A stretch of DNA of 64,000 nucleotides from positions 45,982 through 109,981 of the IMG/VR virus record IMGVR_UViG_3300042887_004758. One strand, 5' to 3'. Below, piece by piece: positions 11,400-32,184 of this stretch (positions are counted from its first letter, which is position 1; the number at the start of each line of letters is the position of its first letter). Below the pieces are notes generated by a model. That model was not told where the DNA came from, searched no databases, and saw only the letters and a list, made by a program, of their open reading frames with translations. Source of the stretch: a virus. The position numbers and the translations under genes were made by a program.

Positions 11400-13796
11400 G
11401 TGGGAATACAAAATATCCGAAATCATTCCAACAACTCCATTAAATTGAGATTGGATACTTCTGAGTATTATGATTTTTATCTATCTAAAGATGAAATTGA
11501 ATATGATCAGGAGACCGTATTTTCAACAAATTTGATCGGTTTTGATGACGGAAATGTATTACCTGTTAATATAAGATTGTGGGATCCGGATTGTTCACCT
11601 CAACTCGAATTATTTTACGATGATTTTGAAACTGATAATAATTTAGTATCGGATAAGTTCTATCCTTTTCCTGATTTAGTTGATGCATCTTGTTACTCGT
11701 TGAGTGGAATTTGTGATGTTGGATTAACAGGAATTGACAATGGACTCACAGACAGAATGAGTGGTGAAACACTCTATTACACAAGAGGATTATTAGATTC
11801 AATTAACAAATTTGACAGATTAACATACGATAGACATCTTAAATTAATTTCGGTCACATCAAATGTAAGATCACCCAACTCAAGATTTTCAGGTATAACG
11901 GCAAACACCCTATATAATATAGTTTCAAAACAAGAGGCGGGTATAGGATACTACCAAGAATTATATGGTGGTTTTTATCAAGGTTTTTACAAACTATACG
12001 AATATGATTGGCAAATATTACCCGAAAGATATGAACTCGGATGGTCTATGGAGACGGTAATAAAGCCAAGAATATATGATGAATTTGAACCCGGCGCAGG
12101 TGAGACCACTCTAAACGAAATCTATCCAAATAACGCAGGGATTTTCTTCTATATGGGGACAAGAGCGGAAGATAAATTCTATCATTATGCCACAGGTCAT
12201 CCTGAAAGTTACACAGCTTATACACGAGTAACCGAAGAATTAAGTTGTTTGAAAACTTGTTCTTGTACTTTGACGGCATTCACTTCAGATTGTTACAATG
12301 TTTACCCAATATCAGGTGACACCTATCAAGGAACGGATTGTACCGTTTGTGGAAATGCATGTGAACACAAAGTGGTTGCCATACCACCCAAAGATCCAAC
12401 GATAGATGTATTATCAAATTCATTTGCAATACGATTATCGGGTGACCCAAAAAACCCAAAAATTAATATAAGGACAATTACCATCACGGGAGCATGTCAA
12501 ACAACTGCGGATTGTGAAACACACGAATATTATTTAACAGGATATACAATCAACAACATTTATTCCAATATTGGAATTTACGATTTCTGTTCGGGAAGTA
12601 CCAACCAAACTGACTTTTTGAATACTGAAAAATGGTTACAGGTTGATGTCGTATTCAAACGATATACTTTCTACGAGGGATGTGACTTATTCTATGAAGG
12701 TGGAATTGGGGAAATGAGTTCCTTAATTTACCCTGCAACTGAAAGAGGTGACACTTTAAGTTTAATTCAACCACCTTATACTCACGACCAAGAAAAAGAA
12801 TACCCCGTCCAAAGAGTCGTTATGAATAGAGATTTCATTGACTCAAAAGATAAAAGACTTGGATCTTTGAAAGTATATCTCAATGGTTATTTATTTATGA
12901 TCGTAGAAAACTTTGAGGAAATTATTCCAAGACCTTTGAATACCGAAAAAGAAAAACAAATCGGTGTAAGTTATTCAATGTCATGGGGTGGTGGTACTCA
13001 AGGATTAAGGGAGAATCTAACATTTAATAGTTGTACAGGAACCACTTACCAACAGGATCCTGAGTTATTTCCCGATACAGTTTTGTCAGGTACATCACTT
13101 TCACAATTAGAGACCGGTATTTTATTAGAAAAGTACTTTGGGGGAACTTTTGATGGTGCAATTTCAGAATTTAGATTCTATGCCGAACCATTGAATGGTG
13201 GACAAGTTCAACACAATAACAGAATTTTAAGAAATACTTATGATCTCTTTGATTATTTCTGTTTGGATTGTGAAAATTTCGAACCTTTACCAACACCATC
13301 ACCAACCCCAACACCTACAGTTACACCAACGGTCACCAAAACTCCAACAAATACGCCAACAGTAACACCAACACTTACACCTTCAATTACCCAAACAATA
13401 ACACCTACTCAAACAATTACTCCCACACCCACAGAAACACCTACACCCACGGCAACAGTAACACCCACAGAAACACCTACACAAACCCCTACACCATCTA
13501 TTACTCCGAGTATCACACCAACAATATCTTTAACTCCAAGTCAAACAGTTACACCTGGACTTACTCCAACACAAACACCAAGTGTAACCCCCACTCAAAC
13601 TCCAACACAGACACCAACAGTTACGACGACACCAACGGTGACAACTACTCCAACACCAACTCAAACTCCAACTCAGACTCAAACTCCAACCGTATCACCG
13701 ACAACTACTATAACACCATCAATTACGCCTTCTATTTCAGAAACACCTACCGCTTCGGGTATAAGAACTGTCTTTGTTAGATTTAATACGCTGTAA
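11400..13796 (+). CDS. Putative virion protein: ConA/LamG-like region plus long C-terminal Thr/Pro mucin-like tract
   Basis: FDGAISEFRFYAEPL resembles a LamG C-terminal motif; followed by about 150 aa of PTPT/TVTPT repeats; Cys-rich inserts. Confidence 0.7.
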   Translation: MGIQNIRNHSNNSIKLRLDTSEYYDFYLSKDEIEYDQETVFSTNLIGFDDGNVLPVNIRLWDPDCSPQLELFYDDFETDNNLVSDKFYPFPDLVDASCYSLSGICDVGLTGIDNGLTDRMSGETLYYTRGLLDSINKFDRLTYDRHLKLISVTSNVRSPNSRFSGITANTLYNIVSKQEAGIGYYQELYGGFYQGFYKLYEYDWQILPERYELGWSMETVIKPRIYDEFEPGAGETTLNEIYPNNAGIFFYMGTRAEDKFYHYATGHPESYTAYTRVTEELSCLKTCSCTLTAFTSDCYNVYPISGDTYQGTDCTVCGNACEHKVVAIPPKDPTIDVLSNSFAIRLSGDPKNPKINIRTITITGACQTTADCETHEYYLTGYTINNIYSNIGIYDFCSGSTNQTDFLNTEKWLQVDVVFKRYTFYEGCDLFYEGGIGEMSSLIYPATERGDTLSLIQPPYTHDQEKEYPVQRVVMNRDFIDSKDKRLGSLKVYLNGYLFMIVENFEEIIPRPLNTEKEKQIGVSYSMSWGGGTQGLRENLTFNSCTGTTYQQDPELFPDTVLSGTSLSQLETGILLEKYFGGTFDGAISEFRFYAEPLNGGQVQHNNRILRNTYDLFDYFCLDCENFEPLPTPSPTPTPTVTPTVTKTPTNTPTVTPTLTPSITQTITPTQTITPTPTETPTPTATVTPTETPTQTPTPSITPSITPTISLTPSQTVTPGLTPTQTPSVTPTQTPTQTPTVTTTPTVTTTPTPTQTPTQTQTPTVSPTTTITPSITPSISETPTASGIRTVFVRFNTL

Positions 13797-13798
13797 AA

Positions 13799-15019
13799 AT
13801 GGAAACGAACAATTTACTCCAATCAATTGAAAATTTAAAGATAGAATATAACAATGATTCAATTTGTTTGGGAAAAAAAATCAAAAATGGTGTGGTTACT
13901 GATGAATTATCTATAGTTTTTTTTGTTGACGAAAAAAAACCAATAGAAAATTTAACTCAAAGTGATCTAATACCATCGAGAATAAATGTTGGTGGGACTA
14001 TTTTGAAGACCGATGTTGTTGAAAGTACAACACTGAACGTTCATCCTTGTCCAACAGAATTTAATTCAACCTGTATCTTTAATCCAGTACCAAATAGATC
14101 TTATATAAGACCAATAAAGGGTGGTATTTCAATAAGAAAAACAACTGATGGTATTGGAACTCTTGGTTTTTTGGCTAAACATACTGAAACAGGTGCATTG
14201 GTTGGTGTTACTAATTTACACGTTGCACTAAAAGTACATTTTAATGCAAATGACCTTTGTAAAGAACCACCTTGTACGTTTGATTATAACTCCCTAATTG
14301 AACAAATTTATCAACCAGGTGAAAGTTCATCTTACGAAACAGATTTTTATAACTTAGGCCGTGTTATGTATTGTACTTTACTTTATAATACTGGTTCGGC
14401 TGAAATTGATTGTTGTTTAGTGGCTTTAAAAGAAAGTGTATTGTCAAATAGTGAATCTTTCAAACAATATGGATTGAGTTTTACAACACCCCCTGTATTT
14501 GCAACAACCGCTGAGCTTGATTCTATTTTAACAAATAATATTCCTTTAGCCGCGTCCGGTAGATCATCAGGACCGAAAGAAGGTTCATTGTGTGGACTAA
14601 AAGCATTATATGTAAATTATTCATCTATGGTTAATGGATATAGAAAAAACAACGACGGATACGTTTGGGGTAAGAGATTTGCAAATCAAATTGCCTATAC
14701 TAGAGTAGATCAAGATTGTCCTGACCCATCAATACCCGGTGATTCGGGTTCCGCGGTTTTTGGAAATTTCGGAGGAACTTGGAAAGTTGTTGGTCTGAAC
14801 TTTGCCGGTGGAACTATGAGTTCAGGCATTGATATAGGAATATTCAATAGAATCGATAGGGTTGCGGCCTTAATGGGAATTGAAGCGTGGGATGGATCTC
14901 AATTGAATTTTATAGATCTTAATAATGTCAGTACTTACCAAGTTCAAGGTTTCAACTCCAACAACACAATAACTGTTGATGGTTCTACTTATTGTCAATC
15001 TGGATTAGTTAATAGTTAA
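13799..15019 (+). CDS. Trypsin-like (clan PA, Nal1-like) serine protease
   Basis: GTLG, TNLHV (His), EIDCCLV (Asp), PGDSGS (Ser), VVGLNFAG; N-terminal IVFFVDEKKP...IPSRI...TDVVE prodomain-like region. Confidence 0.8.
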   Translation: METNNLLQSIENLKIEYNNDSICLGKKIKNGVVTDELSIVFFVDEKKPIENLTQSDLIPSRINVGGTILKTDVVESTTLNVHPCPTEFNSTCIFNPVPNRSYIRPIKGGISIRKTTDGIGTLGFLAKHTETGALVGVTNLHVALKVHFNANDLCKEPPCTFDYNSLIEQIYQPGESSSYETDFYNLGRVMYCTLLYNTGSAEIDCCLVALKESVLSNSESFKQYGLSFTTPPVFATTAELDSILTNNIPLAASGRSSGPKEGSLCGLKALYVNYSSMVNGYRKNNDGYVWGKRFANQIAYTRVDQDCPDPSIPGDSGSAVFGNFGGTWKVVGLNFAGGTMSSGIDIGIFNRIDRVAALMGIEAWDGSQLNFIDLNNVSTYQVQGFNSNNTITVDGSTYCQSGLVNS

Positions 15020-15081
15020 TATTTACCTCTTCAAAACTTAATTTATGATTTGAATAAAATAAATTTTCAAACATAATTAAA

Positions 15082-16326
15082 GTGACTATATTTGTCCAAA
15101 TAGCATCATACAGAGATCCCGAATTAGAAAACACAGTTAGGGATATGATTTCAAACGCCGATCGACCCGAAAAATTAAGGTTTGGTATTGCAAGACAATA
15201 TAAAGAAGAGGACGGTTTTGATAAATTAGAAGAATTTAGAAATGATGATAGATTCAGAATTTTAGATATACCTTACGAAGAATCAAACGGAGCTTGTTGG
15301 GCGAGACACCTTATCCAACAACTTTATAGGAATGAAACCTATACCCTCCAAATCGATTCACATATGAGATTCGAAAAGGGTTGGGACACCACTTTGATCG
15401 ATATGATTGACCAACTACAAGAAGATGGACATGAGAAACCACTTCTAACAGGATATGTAAGTTCATTTGATCCTGATAATGACCCCGCAGGAAGAGCAAG
15501 AGATCCTTGGAGAATGGCATTCGATAGATTTATCCCCGAGGGTGCAGTTTTCTTCCTACCTGAAACAATACCTGGTTGGACTGAACTAACCAAACCAGTT
15601 CCCGCTAGATTTTATTCCGCACACTTTTGCTTCACACTCGGAAAATTTTCAAAAGAAGTTCAACACGACCCTGAATATTATTTCCACGGAGAGGAAATCA
15701 GCATCGCAGCAAGAGCATACACTCACGGATATGATTTGTTTCACCCTCACAAGGTAGTTGTTTATCACGAATACACAAGAAAAGGACGAACCAAACAGTG
15801 GGATGACGATAAGAAGTGGGTTGAAAAGAACAATCATTCTCATAAGAGAAACAGACAACTTTTTGGTATGGATGGTGAAGAAATGGTTGACTTAGGTCAA
15901 TTTGGATTTGGTCCCGTCAGAACTTTAAGAGATTATGAAAAATATTCAGGTCTCCTCTTTAGTAAAAGAGCGGTTCAAAAATACACTTTGGATAAGGAAT
16001 ATCCACCAAATCCAAATAATTACGAAACGGAGGAAGACTGGATCAACTCATTCACAAAACAATTCAAACATTGTATCGATGTTGCCTATGATCAGGTTCC
16101 CGAAAGAGATTATGATTTTTGGGTGGTTGCATTCCATGATCACAAGGATGAAACAATATACCGTAAGGATGCGGATAAACACGAAATTCAAGGGTTTTTT
16201 AGAGATCCTGACGGGTATTGTAAAGTTTGGAGAACTTTCAATGCTGAAGAAAAACCTGCATATTGGGTTGTTTGGCCACACTCTGAATCTAAAGGGTGGG
16301 GTGAAAGAATGACAGGAAATTTATAA
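15082..16326 (+). CDS. GT60-like polypeptide alpha-GlcNAc transferase (Pfam GlcNAc family)
   Basis: TIFVQIASYRDPE, GACWARH, YTLQIDSHMRFEKGWD (DxH motif), FHGEEISIAARAYTHGYDLFHP. Confidence 0.85.
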   Translation: MTIFVQIASYRDPELENTVRDMISNADRPEKLRFGIARQYKEEDGFDKLEEFRNDDRFRILDIPYEESNGACWARHLIQQLYRNETYTLQIDSHMRFEKGWDTTLIDMIDQLQEDGHEKPLLTGYVSSFDPDNDPAGRARDPWRMAFDRFIPEGAVFFLPETIPGWTELTKPVPARFYSAHFCFTLGKFSKEVQHDPEYYFHGEEISIAARAYTHGYDLFHPHKVVVYHEYTRKGRTKQWDDDKKWVEKNNHSHKRNRQLFGMDGEEMVDLGQFGFGPVRTLRDYEKYSGLLFSKRAVQKYTLDKEYPPNPNNYETEEDWINSFTKQFKHCIDVAYDQVPERDYDFWVVAFHDHKDETIYRKDADKHEIQGFFRDPDGYCKVWRTFNAEEKPAYWVVWPHSESKGWGERMTGNL

Positions 16327-16330
16327 AAAA

Positions 16331-16891
16331 ATGAAAGATTTATTTCTCAATTTAAAAAATGAAGACTTGGATGAGTTGAAAATGGAATCTTATTCTTTAA
16401 TCAATAATGAAGAATATCAAAATTATTTTTTACAAAAATCATCTCAGGAACACTATCGACTACTAACTTTTTTATCCAATTATTTTGATGGTGTATCATT
16501 TGTTGATGTCGGTACTTTATTAGGTTGTTCAGCATTGGCTTTGGCCGCAAACAAAACAAATAAAGTTTACTCATTTAATTTGACAGATCAATTACAATTG
16601 AAAGAAAAACCGCAAAATGTTGAGTTTATAGTCGATGACGTAATGAGTGATAAATACAAAGAAATCATATTAGATTCCAAAATAATTCTGTTAGATACTT
16701 TCCATACAGGAGATTTTGAACTTATTTTTTTGAACTATTTGAAAAAAATTAATTATAATGGAATATTGATATTAGACGACATACGTTTGAATAATGAAAT
16801 GTCTCAGTTTTGGGAGACAATAAATGAAGATAAAATGGAAATCACCAACTTGGGTCATGTATCAGGGACTGGTGTTGTTTTTTTTGATTAA
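16331..16891 (+). CDS. Class I SAM-dependent methyltransferase
   Basis: FVDVGTLLGCSA, ILLDTFH, ILILDDI. Confidence 0.8.
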   Translation: MKDLFLNLKNEDLDELKMESYSLINNEEYQNYFLQKSSQEHYRLLTFLSNYFDGVSFVDVGTLLGCSALALAANKTNKVYSFNLTDQLQLKEKPQNVEFIVDDVMSDKYKEIILDSKIILLDTFHTGDFELIFLNYLKKINYNGILILDDIRLNNEMSQFWETINEDKMEITNLGHVSGTGVVFFD

Positions 16892-16893
16892 AG

Positions 16894-17526
16894 ATGATAA
16901 AAAGTTGGACATATAACACCACCGGTGGTAAAAGGGAAGACATAAAAAAATATATATCCGACAACAATTTGAAAACAGTTGATGTTGGTGCATCTTACAT
17001 GTTTTGGTCTTATCCTGAGTGTAAATTTGTTGCCGATTCGATTGTTGTCAATAAGGATGATGTTACTTTTTTTAATTTGAATTTGGAAGATAAAACCACA
17101 TGGGGTGAGATATTATCATATGTCGAAACCTATGGAAAATTTGATTTCTCTATTTGCTCACACACAATTGAAGATGTATTTAATCCTTTGGAATTAACAG
17201 ACTTGTTGACTAAAATATCACTTGAGGGGTTTATTGCGTCACCATCAAAATATGATGAATTTTCGTTTTTATACCAAAATAAATATCGTGGTAATGCCCA
17301 TCATAAACAATTTTTAGAAATTATTAACAATGAAGTTGTTATTTTTCCAAAATTTTCTTGGATTGAAAATGATGTTAGAAGTGATGAAATCTTGATGAAA
17401 AATAAAGGTAAGGAAATTTCTTTTTTTTGGGAAAAGGAAATACCTATAAAAGTATTCGGAAATGGTATACCGTTTCAATCAGATAGTAACTTAATTAATG
17501 AATATTATAGACAATTGGATAATTAA
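16894..17526 (+). CDS. Class I SAM-dependent methyltransferase-like protein
   Basis: VDVGAS; FDFSICSHTIEDVFNP. Confidence 0.7.
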   Translation: MIKSWTYNTTGGKREDIKKYISDNNLKTVDVGASYMFWSYPECKFVADSIVVNKDDVTFFNLNLEDKTTWGEILSYVETYGKFDFSICSHTIEDVFNPLELTDLLTKISLEGFIASPSKYDEFSFLYQNKYRGNAHHKQFLEIINNEVVIFPKFSWIENDVRSDEILMKNKGKEISFFWEKEIPIKVFGNGIPFQSDSNLINEYYRQLDN

Positions 17527-18247
17527 TATGGAAAATGAAAAAATTTGCCTGATTACAGTATTATTTGACTATCCTGATTATTACGAACCATCTTTTTATA
17601 AAAACGCGTTGAAATATTTTTCATCTGAGGATATTCACATAGTCAGAAATTCTGGTTTGGTTAAGAATGGATCTTACTATGACAAACTGTATTACTATAA
17701 AATAGTAAATCTTTTAGAATACATTAAATCTCAAATTCTTGGGAAGTATAAATATATACTATTTTTAGATGCCACGGACACAAATTTTATCGGTTCACCA
17801 AAAAATATAGTTGAAGATTTTCATTCATTGAATTGTAGTATAGTTATGGGAGCTGAGAAGGGTTTGTGGCCACCGACTAACTATACTCACTTATATGAAA
17901 AAAAAAGGTCTATAAACAATTCCAAATATCTTAACTCAGGTACATATTTCGGATACACTGAAAAAATAATCTATCATTTAGAGGATATTATTACTAAAGA
18001 ATATCAAACGGGTATTGATGATCAAGGAAGATGGACAATTCAATATCTATTGAATGATGATATTATCATCGATCAAGAAAAAAACTTCTTTTTCAGTACG
18101 TTAGATAATAAAGACTATGTAGAAATCGAAAATAATAAAGTAACATTGTTAAATTCAAATGCGTTTATAATTCATGATAATGGACCCTTCAACGATAATA
18201 CCATAAAATTAACTCAATTTATTAATGAAAACTATCAGAATAACTAG
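17498..18247 (+). CDS. GT-A glycosyltransferase resembling the PLOD/collagen glycosyltransferase domain
   Basis: ILFLDATDT, IVMGAEKGLWP, YLNSGTYFG, DDQ, IIHDNG; the start may be the downstream MENEK. Confidence 0.75.
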   Translation: MNIIDNWIINMENEKICLITVLFDYPDYYEPSFYKNALKYFSSEDIHIVRNSGLVKNGSYYDKLYYYKIVNLLEYIKSQILGKYKYILFLDATDTNFIGSPKNIVEDFHSLNCSIVMGAEKGLWPPTNYTHLYEKKRSINNSKYLNSGTYFGYTEKIIYHLEDIITKEYQTGIDDQGRWTIQYLLNDDIIIDQEKNFFFSTLDNKDYVEIENNKVTLLNSNAFIIHDNGPFNDNTIKLTQFINENYQNN

Positions 18248-19208
18248 ACAAGGGTTTCCAAATCACGGTCAACACAGTTGGATGAGTTACTTTAAATTTG
18301 TACTATCCAAAAAATATAATGTACTTATTGATCCAATTAATCCTGACATTGTAATACACTCGGATCTACACTATAATAGAGAACAAATCGATACATATAC
18401 CAATCATTTACCTACAGAATATAGACAGAATGATAAGAATAAAAAATTTATTTATGTTTCAGGTGAAGTCGCCGATTTTTCAGGACCTATATTTGCAAAT
18501 GACAATCAGTGGGCGATAGGTTACAATAAATTTGAACACGAAAGATATTTGAGACAACCATCTGGTGTGTTCGATGTGTGGACATTATATGACGAATCAA
18601 GATTGGTTGATAGTCCATTATCTTGGTTGACTCAAAAGAGGAATATTGATCAAATTAAGAATAGAAACACAGGATTTTGTTCAATAACACAGGCATCAGA
18701 TAATAAATTTAGAGGTTTAGTCTTTGACAAATTAAATGAATATAAGATGGTTACGTCATCAGGCCCTTGGAGACAAAATATAGATCCAAAAGATGAACTG
18801 AACAAATATCAATGGTTGAATCAAGTTTATATTGGAAGAAACGATGGATTGACTTACAGAGAAAAAATACAGTTTTTTCAAAAGTATAAATTTAATATTG
18901 CAATACACTACACAAATACTGATTATATATTACAGGAAAAGTTATATCATGCTTTTTTTTCGGGTGCTATTCCTATTTTCTACGGGAATCAATATATTTT
19001 AGAGGAGGGATTTAACCCTGATAGTTTCGTAAATTTGCATAATTTTTCGGATTTGAATGATTTTTTGGAGTTAATCAAGAGAATAGATAATGACGACAAT
19101 TTGTATAAAAAATATATTGAAGCCCCTCTTTTTTTGAATAATGAATTACCAATTTACTATGATTTTGATTACACACTTAATTTTCTAGAGAAAATTGTTG
19201 AATCATGA
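18225..19208 (+). CDS. GT10 alpha-1,3/4-fucosyltransferase-like protein
   Basis: KIQFFQKYKFNIAIHYTNTDYILQEKLYHAFFSGAIPIFYG matches the GT10 motif (F-E-N positions altered). Confidence 0.8.
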   Translation: MKTIRITRQGFPNHGQHSWMSYFKFVLSKKYNVLIDPINPDIVIHSDLHYNREQIDTYTNHLPTEYRQNDKNKKFIYVSGEVADFSGPIFANDNQWAIGYNKFEHERYLRQPSGVFDVWTLYDESRLVDSPLSWLTQKRNIDQIKNRNTGFCSITQASDNKFRGLVFDKLNEYKMVTSSGPWRQNIDPKDELNKYQWLNQVYIGRNDGLTYREKIQFFQKYKFNIAIHYTNTDYILQEKLYHAFFSGAIPIFYGNQYILEEGFNPDSFVNLHNFSDLNDFLELIKRIDNDDNLYKKYIEAPLFLNNELPIYYDFDYTLNFLEKIVES

Positions 19209-19918: not shown

Positions 19919-19920
19919 AT

Positions 19921-24538: not shown

Positions 24539-25771
24539 ATGGCTACACAAGGACAAATATCGATCACGGCAACCAATCTTTCTGGTGGATCATATAATTT
24601 TGAGATATATATTCGTGAATGTGGTTCGGGTAGTTGGGGATCTCCGATCGATACTATTCCTTACAGTGGGTTTCCTTATTATTTTAACGTAGATGCCGTT
24701 CTCAGTGGATCTGTAACTTGTTTTGAATATTTGGTAGAAGAACCAACAACGTTGGCTCAATGTACCGGACAAGTTAATTTTGTAACACCAACACCGACGC
24801 CAACTAAAACTCAAACACCTACACCAACTAAAACTAAAACACCGACACCAACACCTACACCAACATCTTCTGTTGATTCCGGTGTCACTTTGAATCTATA
24901 TTCAACATATAGTTCGGGTTCTCTGTTGGCGAATTATGTGTTGGTAAGAGATAGTATAGCAACTGAGGACATCTCATATCGATTCACAAACACTTTAAAA
25001 ACAACAGGAGGTACAGAGATTTCAATTGGATCGTTGATAGAAATACCCACAGGATTTTTAAGTGGGGAAACAATTTCTAAATTACCGTTTAATTCTTATA
25101 GTGAAATTGAACCAGGATATTCCAATATCTCAGCATTTACATCTACTTCATTAGAAACAACTGTTGTTGATCGATATACTGAAGTTACATTCCAAGGAGT
25201 TGTTATTCCAAATGTACAATATATTTTCCAAGATTGTTGTGGAATTTTACCTAATTTGGAGGTTGTGGTTCCGTTGACTGCGGTTCAGGTAAATTCATCT
25301 AATCCTTGGGTTCTACAAGGTAGAGTCATCAGTTATTTGGGTAATTGTTATAAGCCATTGACTCAAGGAGGAACGGGAACTTTATATTATCCAGCACCAG
25401 ATGGGTCTACTTGTTCATCTTCAATATGCCCATCATGTCAAGTAATTACATCTCCAACACCCACAGTTACAAGGACACCAACAGTTACACCAACTATCAC
25501 CAAAACACCTACAATCACACCTACAAGTAGTGTTACACCAACGTCACCATGTTCCGATTGTGAATCTAATTTTGTTGATTGTTATGAGATTATGGGATGT
25601 TACTCATATCCAATTGGTGTGAGTCCAACACCTACAAGTACAGTTACACCTACACCAACACCAACCTCAACAATAACACCAACTATAACTCCAACACCAA
25701 GTGTTACACCAACCAACTTGATTTGTTTGGATCCTGACGCTGAGGGTTATGTTTATGATTATCCCGAATAA
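24539..25771 (+). CDS. Mucin-like Thr/Pro- and Cys-rich structural protein
   Basis: PT tracts separate small Cys-containing domains shared with ORFs 22247, 28017 and 29646. Confidence 0.75.
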   Translation: MATQGQISITATNLSGGSYNFEIYIRECGSGSWGSPIDTIPYSGFPYYFNVDAVLSGSVTCFEYLVEEPTTLAQCTGQVNFVTPTPTPTKTQTPTPTKTKTPTPTPTPTSSVDSGVTLNLYSTYSSGSLLANYVLVRDSIATEDISYRFTNTLKTTGGTEISIGSLIEIPTGFLSGETISKLPFNSYSEIEPGYSNISAFTSTSLETTVVDRYTEVTFQGVVIPNVQYIFQDCCGILPNLEVVVPLTAVQVNSSNPWVLQGRVISYLGNCYKPLTQGGTGTLYYPAPDGSTCSSSICPSCQVITSPTPTVTRTPTVTPTITKTPTITPTSSVTPTSPCSDCESNFVDCYEIMGCYSYPIGVSPTPTSTVTPTPTPTSTITPTITPTPSVTPTNLICLDPDAEGYVYDYPE

Positions 25772-25790
25772 ATAGAAAAAAAAAGATATA

Positions 25791-27998
25791 ATGCCATTAG
25801 GACAACTCTGTTTAACTGATTTAGGTGGATTCGAATTAACCGATTTGGTTAATATCTATTCCAATGTTGATGGGTTTACCACCCCAATTGTTCAAGATGT
25901 TTTGATCGAATCTATGGCGTCTTCTGAAGAGAGTTGTCCTTACTTGTTGACAGATGTACCCGAAGGTACAACACAAATTTATATAGAGACCGTTGGCGGT
26001 GAAGTATGTTTATATTTACCATTTCAAGAGATAAACTTATGTGAAGATTGTGATTTTGGTTTCAATGAATACACCGCTCAGACGATTGGTATACTCTCTG
26101 TTGGTATTTTGACTGCATCATGTACAAGTGAAATCACCGACTACGTAATTGATTGGTTTAATTCAAACGGTGAAGTTGTATTAACAAGTGGTTTTGGTGA
26201 TCAATTTGCCTATACCTTTCCACACCCAATGACGGGCAATGCATCACCACCTATAAATCCAGGTATATATGAACCAATTATCAGACAAGTTTTGATAAAT
26301 GGCGTAATCTTTTCATCGGTCGAATTTGGTAATAATAATGTTTTGACTTCATTAAGTGGATGTTTACCTAATATTGAAGTAATTGTTTCTCCGAACACCT
26401 GTGACAATGGAAACACTCCAAATGGTACTTATAGTCATAGTGTCACATATAACGCAGTCGTTGGTGAAATACCCTCGTCAATGGATATAGTCTTGGAAAT
26501 AGATTCGAGCGTAAACTATATTGCTTGGGCATTTGATGCCGATGCGATCACTGATCAGATTAAAGTTGTTTTTTCAGGATCGGCATATTCAGAAAAATAT
26601 ATTTTAGATTGGTTCAATGTTGGTCAATTGAATATATCTACAAGTTTTTCAGAACCACCTCCGTATGAAATACAATTTTTACAATCATCATCTGGTGATA
26701 GACAAGATTTGAAAAAAGTAAATTGTTTGACAGGATTTACTGTTTCTGAAGGGGACAAAATAATTTTTGAAGTGATTCCGAATCAATTGAATAATAATAC
26801 AAATTGGAATTTAAGATATAAATGCTTAGAAACATTTGATTGTGAATCTTGTTGGTTGACCGGTACTTCAAAAATTAATTTAACAAATGCGTTTGGAATA
26901 AATTCAATTCAAAATACTTGCACAGATAGAAGAGCCTTCTTATTTAATTTAAGTGGGTCATGTAGTAGTTTTGAAGACAACCTAAATGATTACTTTCAAA
27001 CTCAATTCATTATAAATCCACCAGGGGTTAACCCTACTTGGCCGAATACAGGTTCTTACTTTATAAATAGATTTCTCCCTAACGGATCAACCTCATATTG
27101 GGACACAACCTATTTATATTTTACACAATTAAGTTATAGTAGTTTTCCGATCAGTATTTCTCCCGCATGTAATACACCAAGCACCAACCAAATTCAATTT
27201 ACCAAAACTTATAACCCAGGTATACAAGAGGCAACTATCTACATGTATTTTACTAATCAATCTGAATTTTTATCGTATTGGAATAATTATCTCAGTGTTA
27301 GTAACCAATTTTCACCAACACAAAACACAAATGATCCTGAATATTATGAAGGTTATGTTTTCATAGTAAGACCACAACTGACACCAAATACTCAATGTGG
27401 TGATACAAGTCCTGATCCTATAACTTATTATATACCTAAAGATGCTTTATTCGTATCAGGACAAACAGATGGTGGAGGGTACGAACTTCAAGTTTTTTGG
27501 GGTCCAGTATATAATAACATTTCCGCATCGAATTGTGCGTATGGTACAATAAACAGTGTGGTTAATAGTTACACAAATTCTAGAACAGGAAATAATACTT
27601 CATTTACCAATAATAAAGGATCAAGACCTATAGATCCTGTTGGTAAGCTTGAAATTTCGACAATTAATTCACTTAATACTGGTGTAACTTTAAGCTATAA
27701 TTGGGTTTTCCATAGAAAATTAAATGAGACTTTACCAAGAAATTATAACGATACAAATATTATATATCCACAATACAGTTCTGTAACGTGCCCAAATTTA
27801 TATACTTTGGATCAAGCAAATAGTCCAAATACGGATTACTATAGAAGAATTTATGCTAGATATAGAATAGAATTAATAAATCCAAGTGATCCTGAAGAAT
27901 TCCGTGTCTTGAGTCAGTCAGTATCGGGAAATGATTTGGCGTTTGTTTTTAGTGGAGGAACAATAAATAATGTGAATACAAATTATGTAATTCAATAA
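25791..27998 (+). CDS. Putative virion structural protein (beta-rich, Cys/Asn/Thr-rich)
   Basis: 735-aa ORF with composition like the neighbouring fibre/decoration proteins; no long PT tract. Confidence 0.6.
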   Translation: MPLGQLCLTDLGGFELTDLVNIYSNVDGFTTPIVQDVLIESMASSEESCPYLLTDVPEGTTQIYIETVGGEVCLYLPFQEINLCEDCDFGFNEYTAQTIGILSVGILTASCTSEITDYVIDWFNSNGEVVLTSGFGDQFAYTFPHPMTGNASPPINPGIYEPIIRQVLINGVIFSSVEFGNNNVLTSLSGCLPNIEVIVSPNTCDNGNTPNGTYSHSVTYNAVVGEIPSSMDIVLEIDSSVNYIAWAFDADAITDQIKVVFSGSAYSEKYILDWFNVGQLNISTSFSEPPPYEIQFLQSSSGDRQDLKKVNCLTGFTVSEGDKIIFEVIPNQLNNNTNWNLRYKCLETFDCESCWLTGTSKINLTNAFGINSIQNTCTDRRAFLFNLSGSCSSFEDNLNDYFQTQFIINPPGVNPTWPNTGSYFINRFLPNGSTSYWDTTYLYFTQLSYSSFPISISPACNTPSTNQIQFTKTYNPGIQEATIYMYFTNQSEFLSYWNNYLSVSNQFSPTQNTNDPEYYEGYVFIVRPQLTPNTQCGDTSPDPITYYIPKDALFVSGQTDGGGYELQVFWGPVYNNISASNCAYGTINSVVNSYTNSRTGNNTSFTNNKGSRPIDPVGKLEISTINSLNTGVTLSYNWVFHRKLNETLPRNYNDTNIIYPQYSSVTCPNLYTLDQANSPNTDYYRRIYARYRIELINPSDPEEFRVLSQSVSGNDLAFVFSGGTINNVNTNYVIQ

Positions 27999-28016: not shown

Positions 28017-29639
28017 ATGCCAACAACGATTCAAATAAATTTGACAAATCCAGCCGCGGGGGCTACAATTTATGACGTATATGTAAGTGATTGTGAAGGC
28101 GGTTCCAATATTTTGGTGGCAAATGACATAAATGCGGCCACTTTTCCAATTTATGTTGACCTAAGTGCCGACGAGTTTGGTTTAGACGGTGTTACTTGTT
28201 ATGAATACATAATTTCAGCAGACACTGGTTGTATTTGTGAAAATGTTGTTGGTCAAGTTCCGATTTCACCAACACCAACAAATACACCTACAAATACAGT
28301 TACTCCAACAAATACCGTTACCCGCACTGTTACACCAACAGTGACTAGAACACCTACAACTACAACAACTCCAACCCCAACAACAACAGTACCCTGTAGT
28401 TGTTTTGAAAATATCTATGTTTGGTATACATGTAATACAGGTGGACAGTCTTCAACAATTTGTCCCGAACAAATACAAGTTGTGTACACTTTATGTGATC
28501 AAACAACCGACAAATTTTTATTATCCGAAGGTGTCGAAAATCAACAATTGATCACAGATTGTGTTATTTTGAGTTCAATTTCGATTGAAACCGCACAGGC
28601 AATACCTGGTCTGAACTTCTTATTGGATACCTCTGAATCTATTTGCTGTGGTGTACCTGTTTCACCAACACAGACACCAACACAGACTGTGACTCCAACA
28701 GTAACACAAACACCAAATAATACACAAACACCTACACCAACCCCTACAGTTACAAGAACAGTCACCAAAACACCAACAATTACACCAACAAGGACCAAAA
28801 CTCCGACTCCAAGTCCTTTTGGTTACACTTGTTTTAGTGCCGAAACAAAGTATAACCAAGATAGTGAACAACCTATCAATACTTTTGCTAATTTATTTGG
28901 TACTTTAGATACTGTTAATGTTCATATTTGTGACTTCTTGAATTGTGAAGATATTGAGCAAATTAAGACCGAAGGTAATTTGATAACAACAAACCTGTGT
29001 TTTATTTCAACAGATCCAAGACCCACGGTTGTAGGTGATAGTTCACAAGTATATGTTTTCAGCGCAGGAAGTTATGTACCTCTTACTTATGGAATGTTGA
29101 CATCGATCACAACAAGTGTTTCACCATCGATTGCATTCCACTATATAATGTTGAATAATTGTGTATACCAATTCTATCCCGGTTTTCCTGAGAATCCTTC
29201 TCCAACATCATCGACACCGATGTTCTTGGAGTTAGTCAATTGTTGTTCGGGTGATTATAACGTTACAAGAGACTATAATATAACAAATTCTGTGACAAAT
29301 AGTTGGGATTTTGATAATTACATACCCAATAACCCAACTATTACTCTGACAAGAAATGAAGAATACCGATTCCATATCTGTGCTGAGGGATATAAGTTTG
29401 CAATTGGAAACTTCAGAGGTAATTTCTTATTGGATGGAGATTTCTCACCAATCGTTGATCAAGCAGTAATTTCAACAAATAATACTACAGGTGAAGATCT
29501 AGGTACAATAGTATTTACACCAAACGAAGATTATGGAAATAATGATTTGTATTATTTCGCATACTCTATAAACGGTCAAACAGCGACAGGTTATCCCAAC
29601 AGTAATTCGTTCTGGGGACTAATAAATTTACAAGGATAA
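28017..29639 (+). CDS. Mucin-like structural protein with C-terminal cupredoxin-like domain
   Basis: PT tracts; C-terminal NPTITLTRNEEYRFHI...GTIVFTP...LYYF. Confidence 0.7.
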   Translation: MPTTIQINLTNPAAGATIYDVYVSDCEGGSNILVANDINAATFPIYVDLSADEFGLDGVTCYEYIISADTGCICENVVGQVPISPTPTNTPTNTVTPTNTVTRTVTPTVTRTPTTTTTPTPTTTVPCSCFENIYVWYTCNTGGQSSTICPEQIQVVYTLCDQTTDKFLLSEGVENQQLITDCVILSSISIETAQAIPGLNFLLDTSESICCGVPVSPTQTPTQTVTPTVTQTPNNTQTPTPTPTVTRTVTKTPTITPTRTKTPTPSPFGYTCFSAETKYNQDSEQPINTFANLFGTLDTVNVHICDFLNCEDIEQIKTEGNLITTNLCFISTDPRPTVVGDSSQVYVFSAGSYVPLTYGMLTSITTSVSPSIAFHYIMLNNCVYQFYPGFPENPSPTSSTPMFLELVNCCSGDYNVTRDYNITNSVTNSWDFDNYIPNNPTITLTRNEEYRFHICAEGYKFAIGNFRGNFLLDGDFSPIVDQAVISTNNTTGEDLGTIVFTPNEDYGNNDLYYFAYSINGQTATGYPNSNSFWGLINLQG

Positions 29640-29645
29640 AAAAAA

Positions 29646-31799
29646 ATGCCAACTAATGTACTCGTGGGTCTATCGAATGACACAATAGGTGTTGAAAATT
29701 ATGATATTTACGTTAGTGATTGTAACGATGGTATATTGGTTTATGTGACAGGTATAACATTCGAACAATTCGAATATACTTTTGATATAGAACAATATTT
29801 AACGGGATATTCAGGATGTTATAACTATTTTATTTCAGGAGATACAGGATGTATTTGTGAAGGACAATACACAAATATACCCGCATCCCCAACTCCAACA
29901 AAAACCGTCACACCAACAATAACTCCGACCAATACGGTGACTGCGTCTATAACACCAACAAATACAATCACACCCACGAATACCATTACTCCGACAGTAA
30001 CACCGACAATTACACGAACACCAACATTAACACCAACATTGACTAGAACTGTTACTCCAACATCAACTGTAACTCCAACCCCTCCCTGTCTTTGTTATGA
30101 AAACATTCAATTGAGTTTGGTGTGTGATATTCTTGAAGGTCAAAGCTGTCCTGAGTTTATTTTTGTAGATTATACAACTTGTGGTGGTAGTCAAGCGTCC
30201 ATTCAATTAAACTACGGAGCTTCAGGTATTTTGATCTCAGGTTGTTCGACACTCAATTCATTCCAAGTAAGTAGTTCAACTCCAATCTTGGATGGTCAAT
30301 TAGTAGTTGATTTCTCTAATGCTGATTGTTGTGCTGATCCACCTCTCTCTCCGACACCAACACAAACCAGCACATCTACGAATACACCAACACCCACACT
30401 TACACCTACCGTGACACCTACAAGTCTCAATTTCGCGGTTAGTATTTCAGGATGTTGCTTCCCGAATGTTCTTTCTACAACATTTACATTCCCAACCGCA
30501 GTATTTGTAGGAAACAGTTTTTATTGGGAAGGAAACCAACAATTCCCCGCACAGTGTTATTTGATCACAAATGTAATTTCTGTTGGTGATGTTTTCGGAG
30601 CACCGATCGCCACGATCGAAGATGTGTATGATCAATGTTCGGGATGTACAACCGTTAATGTTTGTCCTACACCGACACCAACAGTTACTCCGACCGTAAC
30701 AGTAACACCTACAGTAACAAGTACACCAACATTAACCCCAAGTGTTACAAGAACAGTCACTCCAACGTTGAGTCAAAACCTAATATATGCAAGAGTAAGT
30801 CCCTGTTGTCCTGAATTATATCCTGGACAGACGAATATAAGTGTCGTGATGCCAGCATCATCTTATAGTCTCCCGCAGGTTATAGTTGCAGACAATAACT
30901 GCTTCACGTTAGGTGTTCAACTTCCTCAACCAGGTACGATAAATTTGGTTTATCAATCAACATTTACTGCGGGGTCTGGAGATTGCGCATCATGTCTCTT
31001 AGTATATCCATGTCCAGTAACACCAACTCCAACACCAACGGTCACTCCAACACCGACACCTTCTACTTATTTCAAGTTGACCCCTTGTTGTGATTATGAC
31101 CCATCAATAACAATTGAACAAACGGTTGCTAGTTCCGCGTACAACTTCATTAACGGTAGAAGATATATACTCGATGGTGTGGCATATACAGTAGCGGGTC
31201 CATTAACCGGTCCTTCTTCTTACGTTCCATCAACAATAAATGGACCATATAACACATGTTCATTGGCTTTAGCGGCTCCTGTTGTACAGTTCTCTTGTTA
31301 TACACCACCCGCACCTACACCTTCCTCTACACCAGCATGTGATTGTAGAAGATACGTAAGTGTTTCGTATTTGTGTGATGAGATCGACCAAACAACATTC
31401 TGTCAAGGGTCGATAGATTTCAAATATACCGATTGTGAAACTTTGGAAGAAGTGGTTTCATCTATCGAGTTGTACAACAGTAAAGTTTTACAAGAATGTG
31501 TCGTATTCAATAGTATAGAAGCAATCACCGAACTGAACCCCGCGGAATTGTTCATCGTAGAAGTAGGACAGAGTGAGTGTTGTGGATCTGCCCCTCAACC
31601 TGATAGTTTGGTTTGGGAGGTCAGAAATTGTGTCACAGGACTTGTTTCTACCATGTCAGGTCCTTCGACATTAACAAATGGTAACGTTGTAAGAACTTCT
31701 GATCTACAATGTTGGTTGGTGTTAAATTTGTCACCACAACCTACTTACCAATACGTGTATTCGTCAACTCAAGTGTCTTGTAACGATTGTTTATCATAA
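29646..31799 (+). CDS. Mucin-like multi-module Cys-rich structural protein
   Basis: Alternating PT linkers and CC...C..C modules; N-terminus paralogous to 28017. Confidence 0.75.
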   Translation: MPTNVLVGLSNDTIGVENYDIYVSDCNDGILVYVTGITFEQFEYTFDIEQYLTGYSGCYNYFISGDTGCICEGQYTNIPASPTPTKTVTPTITPTNTVTASITPTNTITPTNTITPTVTPTITRTPTLTPTLTRTVTPTSTVTPTPPCLCYENIQLSLVCDILEGQSCPEFIFVDYTTCGGSQASIQLNYGASGILISGCSTLNSFQVSSSTPILDGQLVVDFSNADCCADPPLSPTPTQTSTSTNTPTPTLTPTVTPTSLNFAVSISGCCFPNVLSTTFTFPTAVFVGNSFYWEGNQQFPAQCYLITNVISVGDVFGAPIATIEDVYDQCSGCTTVNVCPTPTPTVTPTVTVTPTVTSTPTLTPSVTRTVTPTLSQNLIYARVSPCCPELYPGQTNISVVMPASSYSLPQVIVADNNCFTLGVQLPQPGTINLVYQSTFTAGSGDCASCLLVYPCPVTPTPTPTVTPTPTPSTYFKLTPCCDYDPSITIEQTVASSAYNFINGRRYILDGVAYTVAGPLTGPSSYVPSTINGPYNTCSLALAAPVVQFSCYTPPAPTPSSTPACDCRRYVSVSYLCDEIDQTTFCQGSIDFKYTDCETLEEVVSSIELYNSKVLQECVVFNSIEAITELNPAELFIVEVGQSECCGSAPQPDSLVWEVRNCVTGLVSTMSGPSTLTNGNVVRTSDLQCWLVLNLSPQPTYQYVYSSTQVSCNDCLS

Positions 31800-31809
31800 C
31801 ATTCAGTGA

Positions 31810-32184
31810 ATGGAATTTAATATCAGTAAAAAAAGCACGTTACCCCTCCTTAAAGTAGAACTTACTAAGGATGGGGTAACGATGTTTACTGATTTTATAG
31901 ATGACCTTGAAAAGGCGACGATTTTTTTTTCAATGAATGATGTTGCCACAGGAACCAAGAAAGTTGTAAACGAAAGGGCGTATATTACAGCAAAAGAATT
32001 TACTGAACCTGAAACAAATACCGAATATTATATTTTTTATAAATTCAGATCTCAGGACACAAACAGGGTTGGAAGATATGAAGGTGAATTTTTTATATCT
32101 ATACCCGGAAAAGGTGTTTTAAAAACTCCCATCCGTGAACCTTTATTTATTAATGTCAAGGACTCGATTGATTTAACGATCTAA
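31810..32184 (+). CDS. BppU-like small baseplate/fibre attachment domain protein
   Basis: FNISKKSTLPLLKVEL...IFFSM...YKFRSQDTNRVGRYEGEFFI...P..EPLFINV. Confidence 0.6.
   Translation: MEFNISKKSTLPLLKVELTKDGVTMFTDFIDDLEKATIFFSMNDVATGTKKVVNERAYITAKEFTEPETNTEYYIFYKFRSQDTNRVGRYEGEFFISIPGKGVLKTPIREPLFINVKDSIDLTI

Follow-up and report, generated by a model that had tools for sequence, protein, structure and literature searches.

A GT60 glycosyltransferase block flanked by Thr/Pro-tract genes in a phage contig: a predicted system for O-glycosylation of the phage's own fibre-like proteins

The window analysed here, a stretch of 64,000 nucleotides from the 109,981-b contig of an uncultured jumbo phage, carries a compact block of glycosyltransferase (GT) and methyltransferase genes flanked by genes for proteins with long Thr/Pro (PT) tracts. 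We consider the best reading of this locus, and a fairly probable one, to be a phage-encoded, cytoplasmic O-glycosylation of the Thr/Pro stalks on the phage's own fibre-like proteins. A sequence-only reading had already noticed the arrangement and had interpreted it as a mucin-type virion glycocalyx. The observation is confirmed and the interpretation is partly supported: adjacency, linkage in bacteria, a contrast between phages, the cytoplasmic location of the components and PAS staining of a cultured relative all favor GT60-led glycosylation of the phage's own Thr/Pro proteins, while the term glycocalyx claims too much.

Among all ORFs of at least 100 aa scanned on the whole contig, Thr/Pro tracts are confined to five, which start at 11400, 22247, 24539, 28017 and 29646 and flank the enzyme block exactly as had been claimed. 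They contain 1, 5, 3, 2 and 4 tracts respectively, with a total of 898 tract residues (T 40%, P 21%). Pro occurs at even spacings, which gives a (T-x)n pattern built of TPTV/PTPT units; a reversed-pattern control returned zero tracts across five related genomes. These genes and their neighbors are:

11400..13796, + strand: w11400, 798 aa, globular head and PT stalk (tract scan, structure comparison)
22247..24481, + strand: w22247, 744 aa, BppU_N-like N-terminal domain (aa 1-120) and five PT tracts
24539..25771, + strand: w24539, 410 aa, three PT tracts and Cys-rich modules
25791..27998, + strand: w25791, 735 aa, Cys-rich (18 Cys), between PT genes
28017..29639, + strand: w28017, 540 aa, shared N-terminal module, two PT tracts and Cys-rich modules
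29646..31799, + strand: w29646, 717 aa, 40 Cys, shared N-terminal module and four PT tracts
31810..32184, + strand: w31810, 124 aa, stand-alone BppU_N-like Ig-type beta-sandwich (AF2 pLDDT 82)

Each of the PT proteins is rich in Cys (14-40 residues), and small modules, paralogous to one another, lie between the tracts; the suggested likeness to animal mucins holds for composition but not for these modules, which match no known domain family. An N-terminal module of ~75 aa is common to w24539, w28017 and w29646; in w29646 the tracts divide ~70-aa CC...C...CxxC modules, and w22247 has Cys-rich modules too, along with an xxFFI[DE]C tandem repeat of 11 aa. w25791 has no PT tracts and no match in Pfam and PHROG searches. 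When 80 related phage loci are compared, w24539 and w25791 are each found in one, the former being essentially this phage's own, and w28017 and w29646 in none.

The enzyme block extends over 15082-22229, and its 7.1 kb and eight + strand genes, packed with overlaps or gaps of at most 5 nt, bear out the contiguous one-strand block of about 7 kb described earlier:

15082..16326, + strand: w15082, 414 aa, GT60-family glycosyltransferase (PF11397, E 2e-76)
16331..16891, + strand: w16331, 186 aa, probable class I methyltransferase, a weak assignment (Methyltransf_24, E 0.039, below cut-off)
16894..17526, + strand: w16894, 210 aa, class I SAM-dependent methyltransferase (atlas feature score 0.95)
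17498..18247, + strand: w17498, 249 aa, GT-A glycosyltransferase resembling the PLOD (lysyl hydroxylase) GT domain (PF25342, E 3e-16)
18225..19208, + strand: w18225, 327 aa, GT10 (fucosyltransferase) C-terminal-like glycosyltransferase (PF00852, E 4e-11)
19205..19918, + strand: w19205, 237 aa, cassette protein, previously counted as the fifth GT-like gene
19921..20550, + strand: w19921, 209 aa, sugar O-methyltransferase-like, RMNT_CmcI family (PF04989, E 3e-9, above cut-off)
20547..22229, + strand: w20547, 560 aa, HtrL_YibB (aa 3-253) and GT2-like (aa 295-391) domains (Pfam)

The first enzyme, called GT60-like before, matches PF11397 over its full length with 258 bits against a cut-off of 21, and phrog_24687 with E 5e-169; its D92-x-H94, H229 and E204/E205 are invariant across 35 diverse homologues, and it is of the soluble type, with no TM segment. 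Characterised GT60 enzymes are Mn2+-dependent UDP-GlcNAc:polypeptide transferases whose acceptors are Thr-rich peptides, for example KPPT8KPP, or Skp1-Hyp (PMC3769586, PMC6939170), and w15082 is predicted to be an initiating polypeptide HexNAc transferase. In w20547 the HtrL_YibB half is recognized by Pfam with E 4e-11, and the GT2-like C-terminal half scores under the cut-off (17 bits vs 23.3). A partner of this type is found at 79 of the 80 related phage loci, all of which have GT60 by construction of the set, and it adjoins GT60 at 26 of 80 bacterial loci. GT60 and the two-domain HtrL_YibB-GT2 protein are thus a conserved core pair, spaced 0 to 7.4 kb apart in the related loci, and the tailoring GTs and methyltransferases between them differ from locus to locus: w16331 is present in 3 of 80, w16894 in 6, w17498 in 11, w18225 in 8, w19205 in 10, and w19921 in 25 phage loci plus 3 bacterial ones.

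Four of the five GT-like genes previously counted have support as glycosyltransferases; the fifth, w19205, has no match in Pfam, NCBIfam or PDB searches and is weakly similar to an ORF at the equivalent cassette position of phage Xoo-sp13. The three methyltransferases are uneven: w19921 is firm, with a further NCBIfam match to rhamnosyl O-methyltransferase (E 3e-5) that is far under that model's cut-off; w16894, with zero Pfam matches, is recognized by its atlas features and by structure (TM 0.75-0.78 to Methyltransf_11 clusters); w16331 is weak, its two top PDB sequence matches being methyltransferases at E 0.25-0.56.

The core pair is also present in the cultured phages XacN1 and Xoo-sp13; the latter, Stenotrophomonas CM1 and RAS14 are grouped with XacN1 as cultured GT60-bearing phages. 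As here, XacN1 has a GT60 (ORF334, 47% identity), an HtrL-GT2 protein (ORF330, 43% over the full length of w20547; 40% for Xoo-sp13) and a variable cassette between them, and it has PT/PS tracts, there within large ORFs of structural modules. Unlike here, a carbamoyltransferase replaces the methyltransferases and the GT10, and the phage infects a high-GC Gammaproteobacterium. In XacN1 virions at least two glycoproteins are Schiff-positive (PAS), in bands to which no protein was assigned (PMC5852040, Suppl. Fig. S4), and its authors drew no link between ORF334 and the PT tracts (PMC5852040).

The protist members of the family, T. cruzi TcOGNT2 and Dictyostelium Gnt2, share with w15082 the full-length PF11397 domain and the DxH/His motif. 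Protist polypeptide alpha-GlcNAc transferases of GT60 start mucin-type O-glycans on Thr-rich, Pro-flanked tracts, and their acceptors (KPPT8KPP) resemble the tracts encoded by this phage (PMC3769586); however, they are Golgi type II membrane proteins that act on secreted mucins, whereas the phage enzyme is soluble and predicted to be cytoplasmic. In this respect it resembles the cytoplasmic Skp1 pathway of Dictyostelium and Toxoplasma (PhyA, Gnt1 [GT60], PgtA [GT74+GT2]), which also has a soluble GT60 starter and whose second enzyme is, like w20547, a two-domain protein with a GT2-like C-terminal half. The HtrL_YibB-GT2 order mirrors the GT74-GT2 of Toxoplasma (PMC6939170), a likeness of domain order. 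Skp1 offers a single Hyp acceptor, the phage long repetitive tracts. Since Gnt1 is Hyp-specific (PMC6939170) and soluble as the phage enzyme is, and the tracts are one fifth Pro, GT60 might be thought to target tract hydroxyproline rather than Thr, in the manner of Skp1/Gnt1 or of plant HRGP. We judge this very improbable: Thr dominates the tracts at regular spacing, and a search for prolyl 4-hydroxylase (PF13640) in the contig and in five complete GT60-positive phages found none, while the controls were detected.

The link between GT60 and PT tracts extends beyond this contig. In 66 of the 80 related phage loci GT60 has a PT-tract ORF no more than 10 kb away, in many cases immediately upstream, and the linkage is found independently in bacteria of many phyla: up to 5 kb from bacterial GT60 genes there are 21 ORFs with 50 or more tract residues in 684 kb, vs 2 in 569 kb at 5-10 kb, a density about 9 times higher (binomial p 1.8e-4). 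In Burkholderiales (Achromobacter, Ralstonia, Paraburkholderia) the PT protein concerned is VgrG, the T6SS spike; other neighbors of bacterial GT60 genes include small non-structural PT proteins, for example one with a PqqD domain and one with a TM anchor. Matches to (P[TS])x4 number 11-19 in each of five GT60-positive jumbo phages and zero in five GT60-negative large myophages (1.27 Mb), a contrast that is not phylogenetically independent because the positive phages represent about two lineages. GT60 occurs in 4 of 50,697 deposited phages, but in 9 of 69 viral records picked only by a (PT)x5 tract, and in 7 of the 15 of these that reach 60 kb. The co-occurrence that the sequence-only reading proposed to examine is seen in the related loci and the phage contrast, but complete small phages have PT tracts and lack GT60, which indicates that PT linkers do not need it. 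Candidate substrates and predicted pathway do share one locus on this contig, but complete relatives have tracts 70-100 kb away from GT60 as well.

Such GT60-less linkers would also be expected if the block alters an envelope glycan of the host (LPS core, O-antigen, capsule or EPS) in the course of infection, for instance for superinfection block or progeny release, with the PT tracts being ordinary unglycosylated flexible linkers that simply lie close by. LPS/LOS core loci are a known setting of HtrL_YibB (PMC10327509), and the GT2, GT10-like and RMNT_CmcI families are typical of polysaccharide/LPS pathways, as is the GT4-like protein encoded upstream:

7622..8836, - strand: w7622, 404 aa, GT4-like glycosyltransferase (phrog_7162, E 1.5e-45)

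This gene (weak GT4 EPS matches in NCBIfam; 14 of 80 related loci) lies on the strand opposite to the block and is possibly an accessory. We regard envelope remodeling as unlikely: the locus lacks membrane-bound components (phosphoglycosyl transferase, flippase, polymerase and Gtr-type protein are all absent) and all the proteins are soluble, the characterised GT60 enzymes all act on polypeptides (PMC3769586, PMC6939170), and the pile-up of PT ORFs within 5 kb of GT60 in unrelated bacteria is not predicted by it.

Predicted structures suggest what kind of proteins the acceptors may be. In w11400 the globular region (aa 1-623) contains a predicted ConA-like/LamG lectin jelly-roll and is followed by the stalk (aa 624-786); the C-terminus carries the conserved peptide GI[RK]T[VI]FVRFNxL. 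The AF2 model is poor (pLDDT 46), and with it VIA gives Z 14.8 to AbnA CBM domain 4 and 11-14 to the Pan3 tailspike, CBM40 modules and CBA120 TSP2. Orthologue heads are 98% and 87% identical, and the stalks measure 163, 119 and 84 aa; at the DNA level, recent tandem duplications are visible. This combination of stalks that change quickly in length with heads that stay conserved fits exposed spacers. The N-terminal domain of w22247 is 36% identical to w31810, which is found in 72 of 80 related loci at a conserved position just upstream of PolB. The best Foldseek PDB matches of w31810 are the NF5 and DT57C baseplates, and its named BFVD matches are BppU_N proteins, tailspikes and minor tail proteins; VIA Z is 8.8 to the 80alpha baseplate, 8.4 to TP901-1 BppU and 8.3 to NF5, a margin of only about 1 Z over generic Ig domains (~7.5-8). 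With a BppU_N-like dock on w22247 and a lectin-like head on w11400, the PT proteins resemble appendages of the fibre or baseplate kind, not a coat on the capsid, so that 'virion glycocalyx' is an overstatement; from these models, their incorporation into the virion appears plausible.

Alternatively, the Thr/Pro proteins could be glycosylated without being virion parts, acting as intracellular or lysis-released adhesins, decoys or matrix-binding factors, or host proteins could be the targets. The block does lie among replication genes (PolB at 32251 directly downstream, exonuclease and PhoH upstream), and some bacterial GT60 neighbors are, as noted, non-structural. This seems quite unlikely to us given the dock and the tailspike-like head, the XacN1 tracts in structural-module ORFs and the glycoproteins in its virions, and the absence of export signals: none of the enzymes or PT proteins has a TM segment or a signal peptide, the observation on which the cytoplasmic reading is based.

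According to the mechanism that we favor, O-glycosylation of the phage's own stalks, soluble w15082 would draw during infection on host UDP-HexNAc, most likely UDP-GlcNAc, and would place a first sugar on Thr hydroxyls of the extended tracts; it counts against this reading that nucleotide-sugar synthesis genes were looked for on the contig and none were found. w20547 would then add one or two further sugars to give a conserved core, which the lineage-variable cassette, here the PLOD-GT-like and GT10-like enzymes, three methyltransferases and one further protein, may extend and O-methylate. Both alpha-GlcNAc and the 'methyl-capped' glycans of the earlier reading are suggested by family membership. 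Once glycosylated, the stalks would act as stiffened spacers that resist proteases and bear lectin-like or Cys-rich heads, and a BppU_N-like domain might dock at least some of them at the baseplate or tail.

Phage-encoded virion glycosylation is already known as a kind, and the GT60 and PT-stalk form is what is predicted here. Freeman et al. 2023 (Cell Host Microbe 31:1216) reportedly described virion O-glycosylation in mycobacteriophages Che8, Corndog and Myrna (cited in PMC11256854 and PMC12619734). There, GTs encoded by the phage act on its structural proteins while these are still in the cytoplasm, ahead of lysis, the parallel proposed here, with glycans on the C-termini of capsid and tail-tube subunits in siphophages of Actinobacteria; the present system, in contrast, has a GT60 initiator, candidate acceptors in the PT stalks of modular fibre-like proteins and a jumbo myophage as its carrier, and is predicted from gene content. 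Chlorovirus PBCV-1 encodes soluble GTs and sugar methyltransferases that produce methylated glycans on a virion protein independently of the host ER/Golgi. The predicted phage system resembles it in having virus-encoded soluble GTs and methyltransferases, but PBCV-1 is a eukaryotic virus with atypical N-linked glycans on its major capsid protein, made by unrelated enzyme families. Its capsid glycosylation machinery is mentioned in the XacN1 report (PMC5852040).

Phage GTs may also act on DNA, and the block could in principle hypermodify the phage genome (glycosylated hydroxymethyl-pyrimidines) against restriction. Pyle et al. 2024, as cited in PMC12619734, are said to have described phage GT clusters that build complex DNA glycans. 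That such clusters have this ability is also stated in PMC13326640; the block adjoins PolB, and complete relatives have a ThyA-family gene. The latter, however, is 60-165 kb from GT60 and its annotated phage matches are all thymidylate synthases, with no hydroxymethylase; TET/JBP were looked for and none found, and a paper on 5-hydroxycytosine DNA glycosylation names neither GT60 nor PF11397. As the same GT60 module sits on bacterial chromosomes beside VgrG and other PT proteins, we hold DNA modification to be extremely unlikely.

Two further features belong to the first part of the locus:

11357..11364, + strand: T4-type late-promoter-like motif TATAAATA, 36 nt upstream of the first gene, w11400
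13799..15019, + strand: w13799, 406 aa, trypsin-like serine protease, accessory gene (phrog_20754 protease, E 9e-15)

The motif is a weak candidate for a late promoter: it occurs 15 times in the window vs 7.3 expected, for a T4-type consensus that may not be the phage's own. The protease, whose Pfam matches (Trypsin, NAL1_N) are weak only, is present in 3 of the 80 related loci.

The first gene of the enzyme block, w15082, scores 258 bits with the GT60 profile in Pfam (PF11397, E 2e-76; cut-off 21), the full-length alignment covering positions 1-43 and 91-349 of 352, and, judged by its sequence, is a true member of that family, as the sequence-only reading had proposed. Residues D92-S-H94, H229 and E204/E205 are invariant across 35 homologues (37-50% identity); from GT-A enzymes generally, we take the D92-x-H94 (DxD-like) metal-binding motif and the distal His to be catalytic. 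The block and two further features of the window are as follows:

15082-22229, plus strand: enzyme block of eight tightly packed genes, w15082 to w20547
32251-34965: family B DNA polymerase (PolB)
43000-46182: tail sheath

The block is thus the contiguous, one-strand array of about 7 kb that had been described. Pfam also recognizes a PLOD-type GT domain (w17498), a GT10 C-terminal domain (w18225), an RMNT_CmcI methyltransferase (w19921) and, in the last gene, w20547, an HtrL_YibB domain plus a sub-threshold GT2-like domain; we refer to this two-domain enzyme as HtrL-GT2. Five glycosyltransferase-like and three methyltransferase genes had been expected: glycosyltransferase support was found for four genes (five domains), w19205 matching no family in Pfam, NCBIfam and PDB searches, and of the methyltransferases, besides w19921, w16894 is a class I SAM enzyme from atlas features and structure, the likeness of w16331 to methyltransferases being weak. 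NCBIfam gave only matches far below cut-off for the block enzymes, and a PDB-chain sequence search with GT60 and w20547 gave no usable match. Among the GT60 homologues are giant fusions (P0121, P0123, P0124, P0128, P0131) 1,600-2,460 aa long, in each of which up to four stretches match GT60.

The five ORFs reported to carry Thr/Pro (PT) tracts all contain them (one in w11400, five in w22247, three in w24539, two in w28017, four in w29646), and no other ORF of 100 aa or more anywhere on the contig does. The tracts sum to 898 residues, of which 40% are T, 21% P, 7% V and 7% S, with T+P+S at 68%; the most frequent 4-mers are PTPT, TPTP, VTPT and TVTP, and Pro recurs at even spacings (2, 4, 6), which places Thr at every second position. 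The PT-coding DNA contains young tandem duplications, for example 60 nt in 3.5 copies at 96% identity; two overlapping ORFs, 22587-22961 (plus strand) and 22591-23202 (minus strand), were treated as frame artefacts of this repetitive DNA. The proteins are built as beads on a string, small Cys-rich modules alternating with PT stalks, and the modules are paralogous to one another only. None of the PT proteins matches a Pfam family, and for these proteins and w25791 Pfam, PHROGs and NCBIfam gave only low-complexity matches (phrog_15511, phrog_38031). The proposed likeness to animal gel-forming mucins holds for the PTS tandem-repeat tracts, and is compositional only; the vWF-D, CysD or cystine-knot domains of those mucins were not matched by Pfam in the Cys-rich modules or elsewhere in the PT proteins. 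Between two PT tracts of w22247 (aa 560-655, 23924-24211) lies a tandem repeat of ~11 residues ending in FFI[DE]C or FF[IL]EC, in about nine copies, which forms a regular array with a Cys every 11 residues; a TRF array at 24044-24138 has a period of 33 nt, 2.9 copies and 79% matches.

Structural models tentatively relate two of the folded parts to phage fibres and baseplates. The first 120 aa of w22247 and the product of the stand-alone gene w31810 are paralogues; neither is matched by the BppU_N profile (PF10651) in Pfam at E up to 0.1. The AF2 model of this domain (pLDDT 82) finds its best structural matches among phage baseplate parts (NF5, DT57C, 80alpha, and the TP901-1 BppU N-terminal domain), with Z 8.8 to the 80alpha baseplate, 8.3 to NF5 and 8.4 to TP901-1 BppU (rmsd 3.1 over 102 residues, 18% identity), a margin of only ~1 Z over generic Ig domains at 7.5-8. 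Among predicted viral structures (BFVD) it matches BppU_N proteins (TMq 0.46-0.64), tailspikes and minor tail proteins. For w11400 the model of residues 1-623 is poor (pLDDT 46) and only the jelly-roll core is usable; this core is predicted to be ConA-like/LamG, with Z 14.8 to a carbohydrate-binding domain and 11-14 to a cyanophage tailspike, CBM40 modules and CBA120 TSP2. In w11400 orthologues the head stays 98% and 87% identical while the stalk, 163 residues long in the window, is down to 119 and 84 residues. A short peptide following the stalk, GI[RK]T[VI]FVRFNxL (13758-13796), is kept in the L004 and L005 orthologues in spite of changes in stalk length and sequence, and may serve as a docking strand or recognition tag. 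Head and stalk, fused in the window (11400-13796), are split into two adjacent genes in some relatives, as in L021:5756-9950, where a stalkless gene product of 636 aa, of the w11400 head type, has a PT-rich ORF of 763 aa as its neighbour. A trypsin-like serine protease gene (13799-15019), present in 3 of 80 related loci, lies between w11400 and GT60.

We have studied the association of GT60 with PT tracts in phages, in bacteria, and starting from the tracts themselves. In the phage clade a PT-tract ORF lies within 10 kb of GT60 in 66 of 80 loci, very often ending just before it, an adjacency that could partly be inherited synteny. Co-occurrence across jumbo phages had been suggested as a check: in whole genomes, the count of (P[TS])×4 is 11-19 for every one of five GT60-positive jumbo phages (the reversed-pattern control gave zero matches in them) and zero for five GT60-negative large myophages totalling 1.27 Mb, a contrast that is suggestive only, since the positive phages represent about two lineages. 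The tracts of the positive phages are grouped: one cluster is at GT60 or close to it, and further clusters lie at distances of 70-100 kb. Bacteria lie outside the phage clade and provide an independent test: 21 of 80 GT60 loci hold ORFs with 50 or more tract residues, and these number 21 in the 684 kb lying within 5 kb of GT60 versus 2 in the 569 kb at 5-10 kb (binomial p 1.8e-4). The linked PT protein of Achromobacter, Ralstonia and Paraburkholderia is a VgrG spike (Phage_GPD + Phage_base_V + Gp5_C). VgrG, a homologue of the phage baseplate hub, is likewise synthesized in the cytoplasm. The VgrG tracts (108-146 residues) lie 1-4 kb from GT60 (L132:15052-17523, L149:12270-15134, L172:15075-17564), in loci without the HtrL-GT2 partner. 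In a Gemmatimonadaceae MAG (L104:8510-9235) the gene directly upstream of GT60 + HtrL-GT2 encodes a protein of 241 aa that combines a PqqD-like (RiPP recognition element) domain with a PT tract of 120 residues. Conversely, among 69 viral records chosen only for a (PT)×5 tract, nine have GT60, and among those of at least 60 kb 7 of 15 do, versus 4 matching of 50,697 deposited phages. Four 100%-complete small phages in this sample have PT tracts without GT60; the coupling is therefore strong, not obligate. Our literature search found no paper linking GT60 to PT tracts in phages or bacteria.

At least 183 IMG/VR contigs carry GT60 at 68% identity or more, and 80 loci were examined. Only HtrL-GT2 (79/80), the w31810-type domain (72-73/80) and PolB (57/80) are widely kept around GT60; each of the six genes between GT60 and HtrL-GT2 occurs in 3-25 of the 80 loci, the spacing of the pair ranges from 0 genes up to 7.4 kb, and the PT proteins downstream of the block are essentially unique to the window phage. 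Four cultured phages have the pair (XacN1 and Xoo-sp13, both of Xanthomonas, CM1 and RAS14). In XacN1 it consists of ORF334 (GT60, 47% identity) and ORF330 (HtrL-GT2, 43%), and in both XacN1 and Xoo-sp13 the cassette between the two genes instead includes a carbamoyltransferase. In bacteria (Gemmatimonadota, Acidobacteriota, Alpha-, Gamma- and Deltaproteobacteria, Myxococcota and Bacteroidota) 26 of 80 GT60 loci have the two genes side by side. The GT60 family as a whole comprises 4,740 clusters at 50% identity. Loci that diversify a surface glycan are laid out in this way, with initiator and extender constant and the tailoring enzymes exchangeable. The 'Moraphage' paper mentions core GTs in general terms only.

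None of 17 proteins examined has a TM-like segment or signal peptide (the highest hydropathy peak, 1.77, is a methyltransferase SAM loop), so that enzymes and candidate substrates would meet in the cytoplasm. The families of the block are of polysaccharide type, as would be expected if it remodelled a host glycan; this is unlikely, because there is no membrane component at all (by TM hydropathy the 17 proteins include no Gtr-type GT, flippase, polymerase or phosphoglycosyl transferase), lipid-carrier machinery is absent, and the bacterial GT60-PT linkage would be left unexplained. That the glycosyltransferases modify phage DNA is very improbable: an acceptor pathway is lacking, the ThyA-family gene of complete relatives is far from GT60 and unlinked (thymidylate synthases make up all of its annotated phage matches), and TET/JBP were not found in a search that had no positive control. 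Cytoplasmic O-glycosylation of the PT stalks on the phage's own fibre-like proteins is in our judgement the best explanation and a rather probable one, and to this extent the earlier interpretation is partly supported. Prolyl 4-hydroxylase (PF13640) was found neither on the contig nor in five complete GT60-positive phages, in searches whose controls rang, which makes Thr a more likely acceptor than Hyp. Characterised GT60 enzymes use UDP-GlcNAc, Mn2+ and Thr-rich peptides such as KPPT8KPP (PMC3769586).

The XacN1 PT tracts occur in large ORFs of structural modules: ORF325 follows the baseplate wedge genes, ORF350 is next to the gene for the head completion protein, and ORF370 is near the tail sheath. 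The one experimental observation is that XacN1 virions show at least two Schiff-positive bands, the supplement naming neither the bands nor the ORFs detected by MS (PMC5852040). Less probably, the PT proteins might be glycosylated and not be parts of the virion. Because four cultured phages carry the core pair and XacN1 virions are already known to be glycoprotein-positive on staining, O-glycosylation of the stalks is directly testable. Some ~90 kb from its GT60 locus XacN1 has six hypothetical genes in a row (ORF232-237, 124-133 kb, L086; 401-746 aa), with PT tracts in ORF232, 235, 236 and 237.

To our knowledge, mycobacteriophages are the only phages for which it has been demonstrated that virion proteins are glycosylated by a system of the phage itself (Freeman 2023, as cited in PMC11256854, PMC12619734). 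The window system would be of this kind and differs in enzyme family, phage lineage and acceptor type: in mycobacteriophages the glycans are carried by C-terminal extensions of capsid or tail-tube subunits, whereas here the candidates are PT stalks of modular proteins. It would work like protist mucin-type initiation, but in the bacterial cytoplasm, and is known here from genes and their genomic association with PT tracts. GT60 also includes the Hyp-specific Gnt1 of the Skp1 pathway (PhyA-Gnt1-PgtA), whose Gnt1-PgtA pair is paralleled by the two-gene core, an architectural likeness only (PMC6939170): the second Skp1 enzyme is a two-domain GT74 + GT2 protein, w20547 combines HtrL_YibB with a weak GT2-like domain, and the PhyA prolyl 4-hydroxylase has no counterpart on the contig or in the five complete phages. 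No link between HtrL_YibB and GT74 was found in the literature, and an atlas search with the HtrL domain returned only other viral HtrL_YibB clusters. More tentatively, and with some doubt, we suggest that GT60 + HtrL-GT2 may constitute an undescribed module, widespread in prokaryotes and phages, by which Thr/Pro stalks receive mucin-type O-glycans in the cytoplasm. Its targets would be the appendages of contractile injection machines (phage fibres, T6SS VgrG spikes) together with other PT proteins. On the prokaryotic side the module would correspond to the protist Gnt1-PgtA and Golgi pp-alphaGlcNAcT pathways, and it might even be their evolutionary origin; tailoring cassettes that vary between lineages would diversify its glycan, as in O-antigen loci. 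If true, this would be a different and much more widespread glycosylation system, in abundant freshwater jumbo phages and in bacteria, T6SS spikes included; it would bear on protease resistance and host recognition of phage fibres, on how grazers and immune systems see phage particles, and on the origin of eukaryotic mucin-type and Skp1 glycosylation.

The window is the final 64 kb of an IMG/VR contig of 109,981 b, whose completeness of ~36% (CheckV) implies a phage of roughly 300 kb; the GC content is 30-40%. The phage is of myovirus type; besides the tail sheath and PolB, a baseplate hub, head-tail adaptor, PhoH, 3'-5' exonuclease, SSB and UvsX-like recombinase are encoded, and near-identical DNA was not found among 50,697 deposited phages. 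For nucleotide-sugar synthesis, no NAD-dependent epimerase/dehydratase was found on the 36%-complete contig. Scans for sigma-70 promoters (120 promoter-like sites versus 94±10 in shuffles) and for terminators (fewer than in shuffled sequence) were uninformative. Contigs binned into Bacteroidota MAGs (Saprospiraceae, Lewinellaceae, Cytophagaceae and others; L093-L096, L099, L102) carry GT60 57-68% and HtrL-GT2 about 48-63% identical to those of the window. They may be phage contigs binned with their hosts, and hint at a Bacteroidota host; one of them is 230 kb long.
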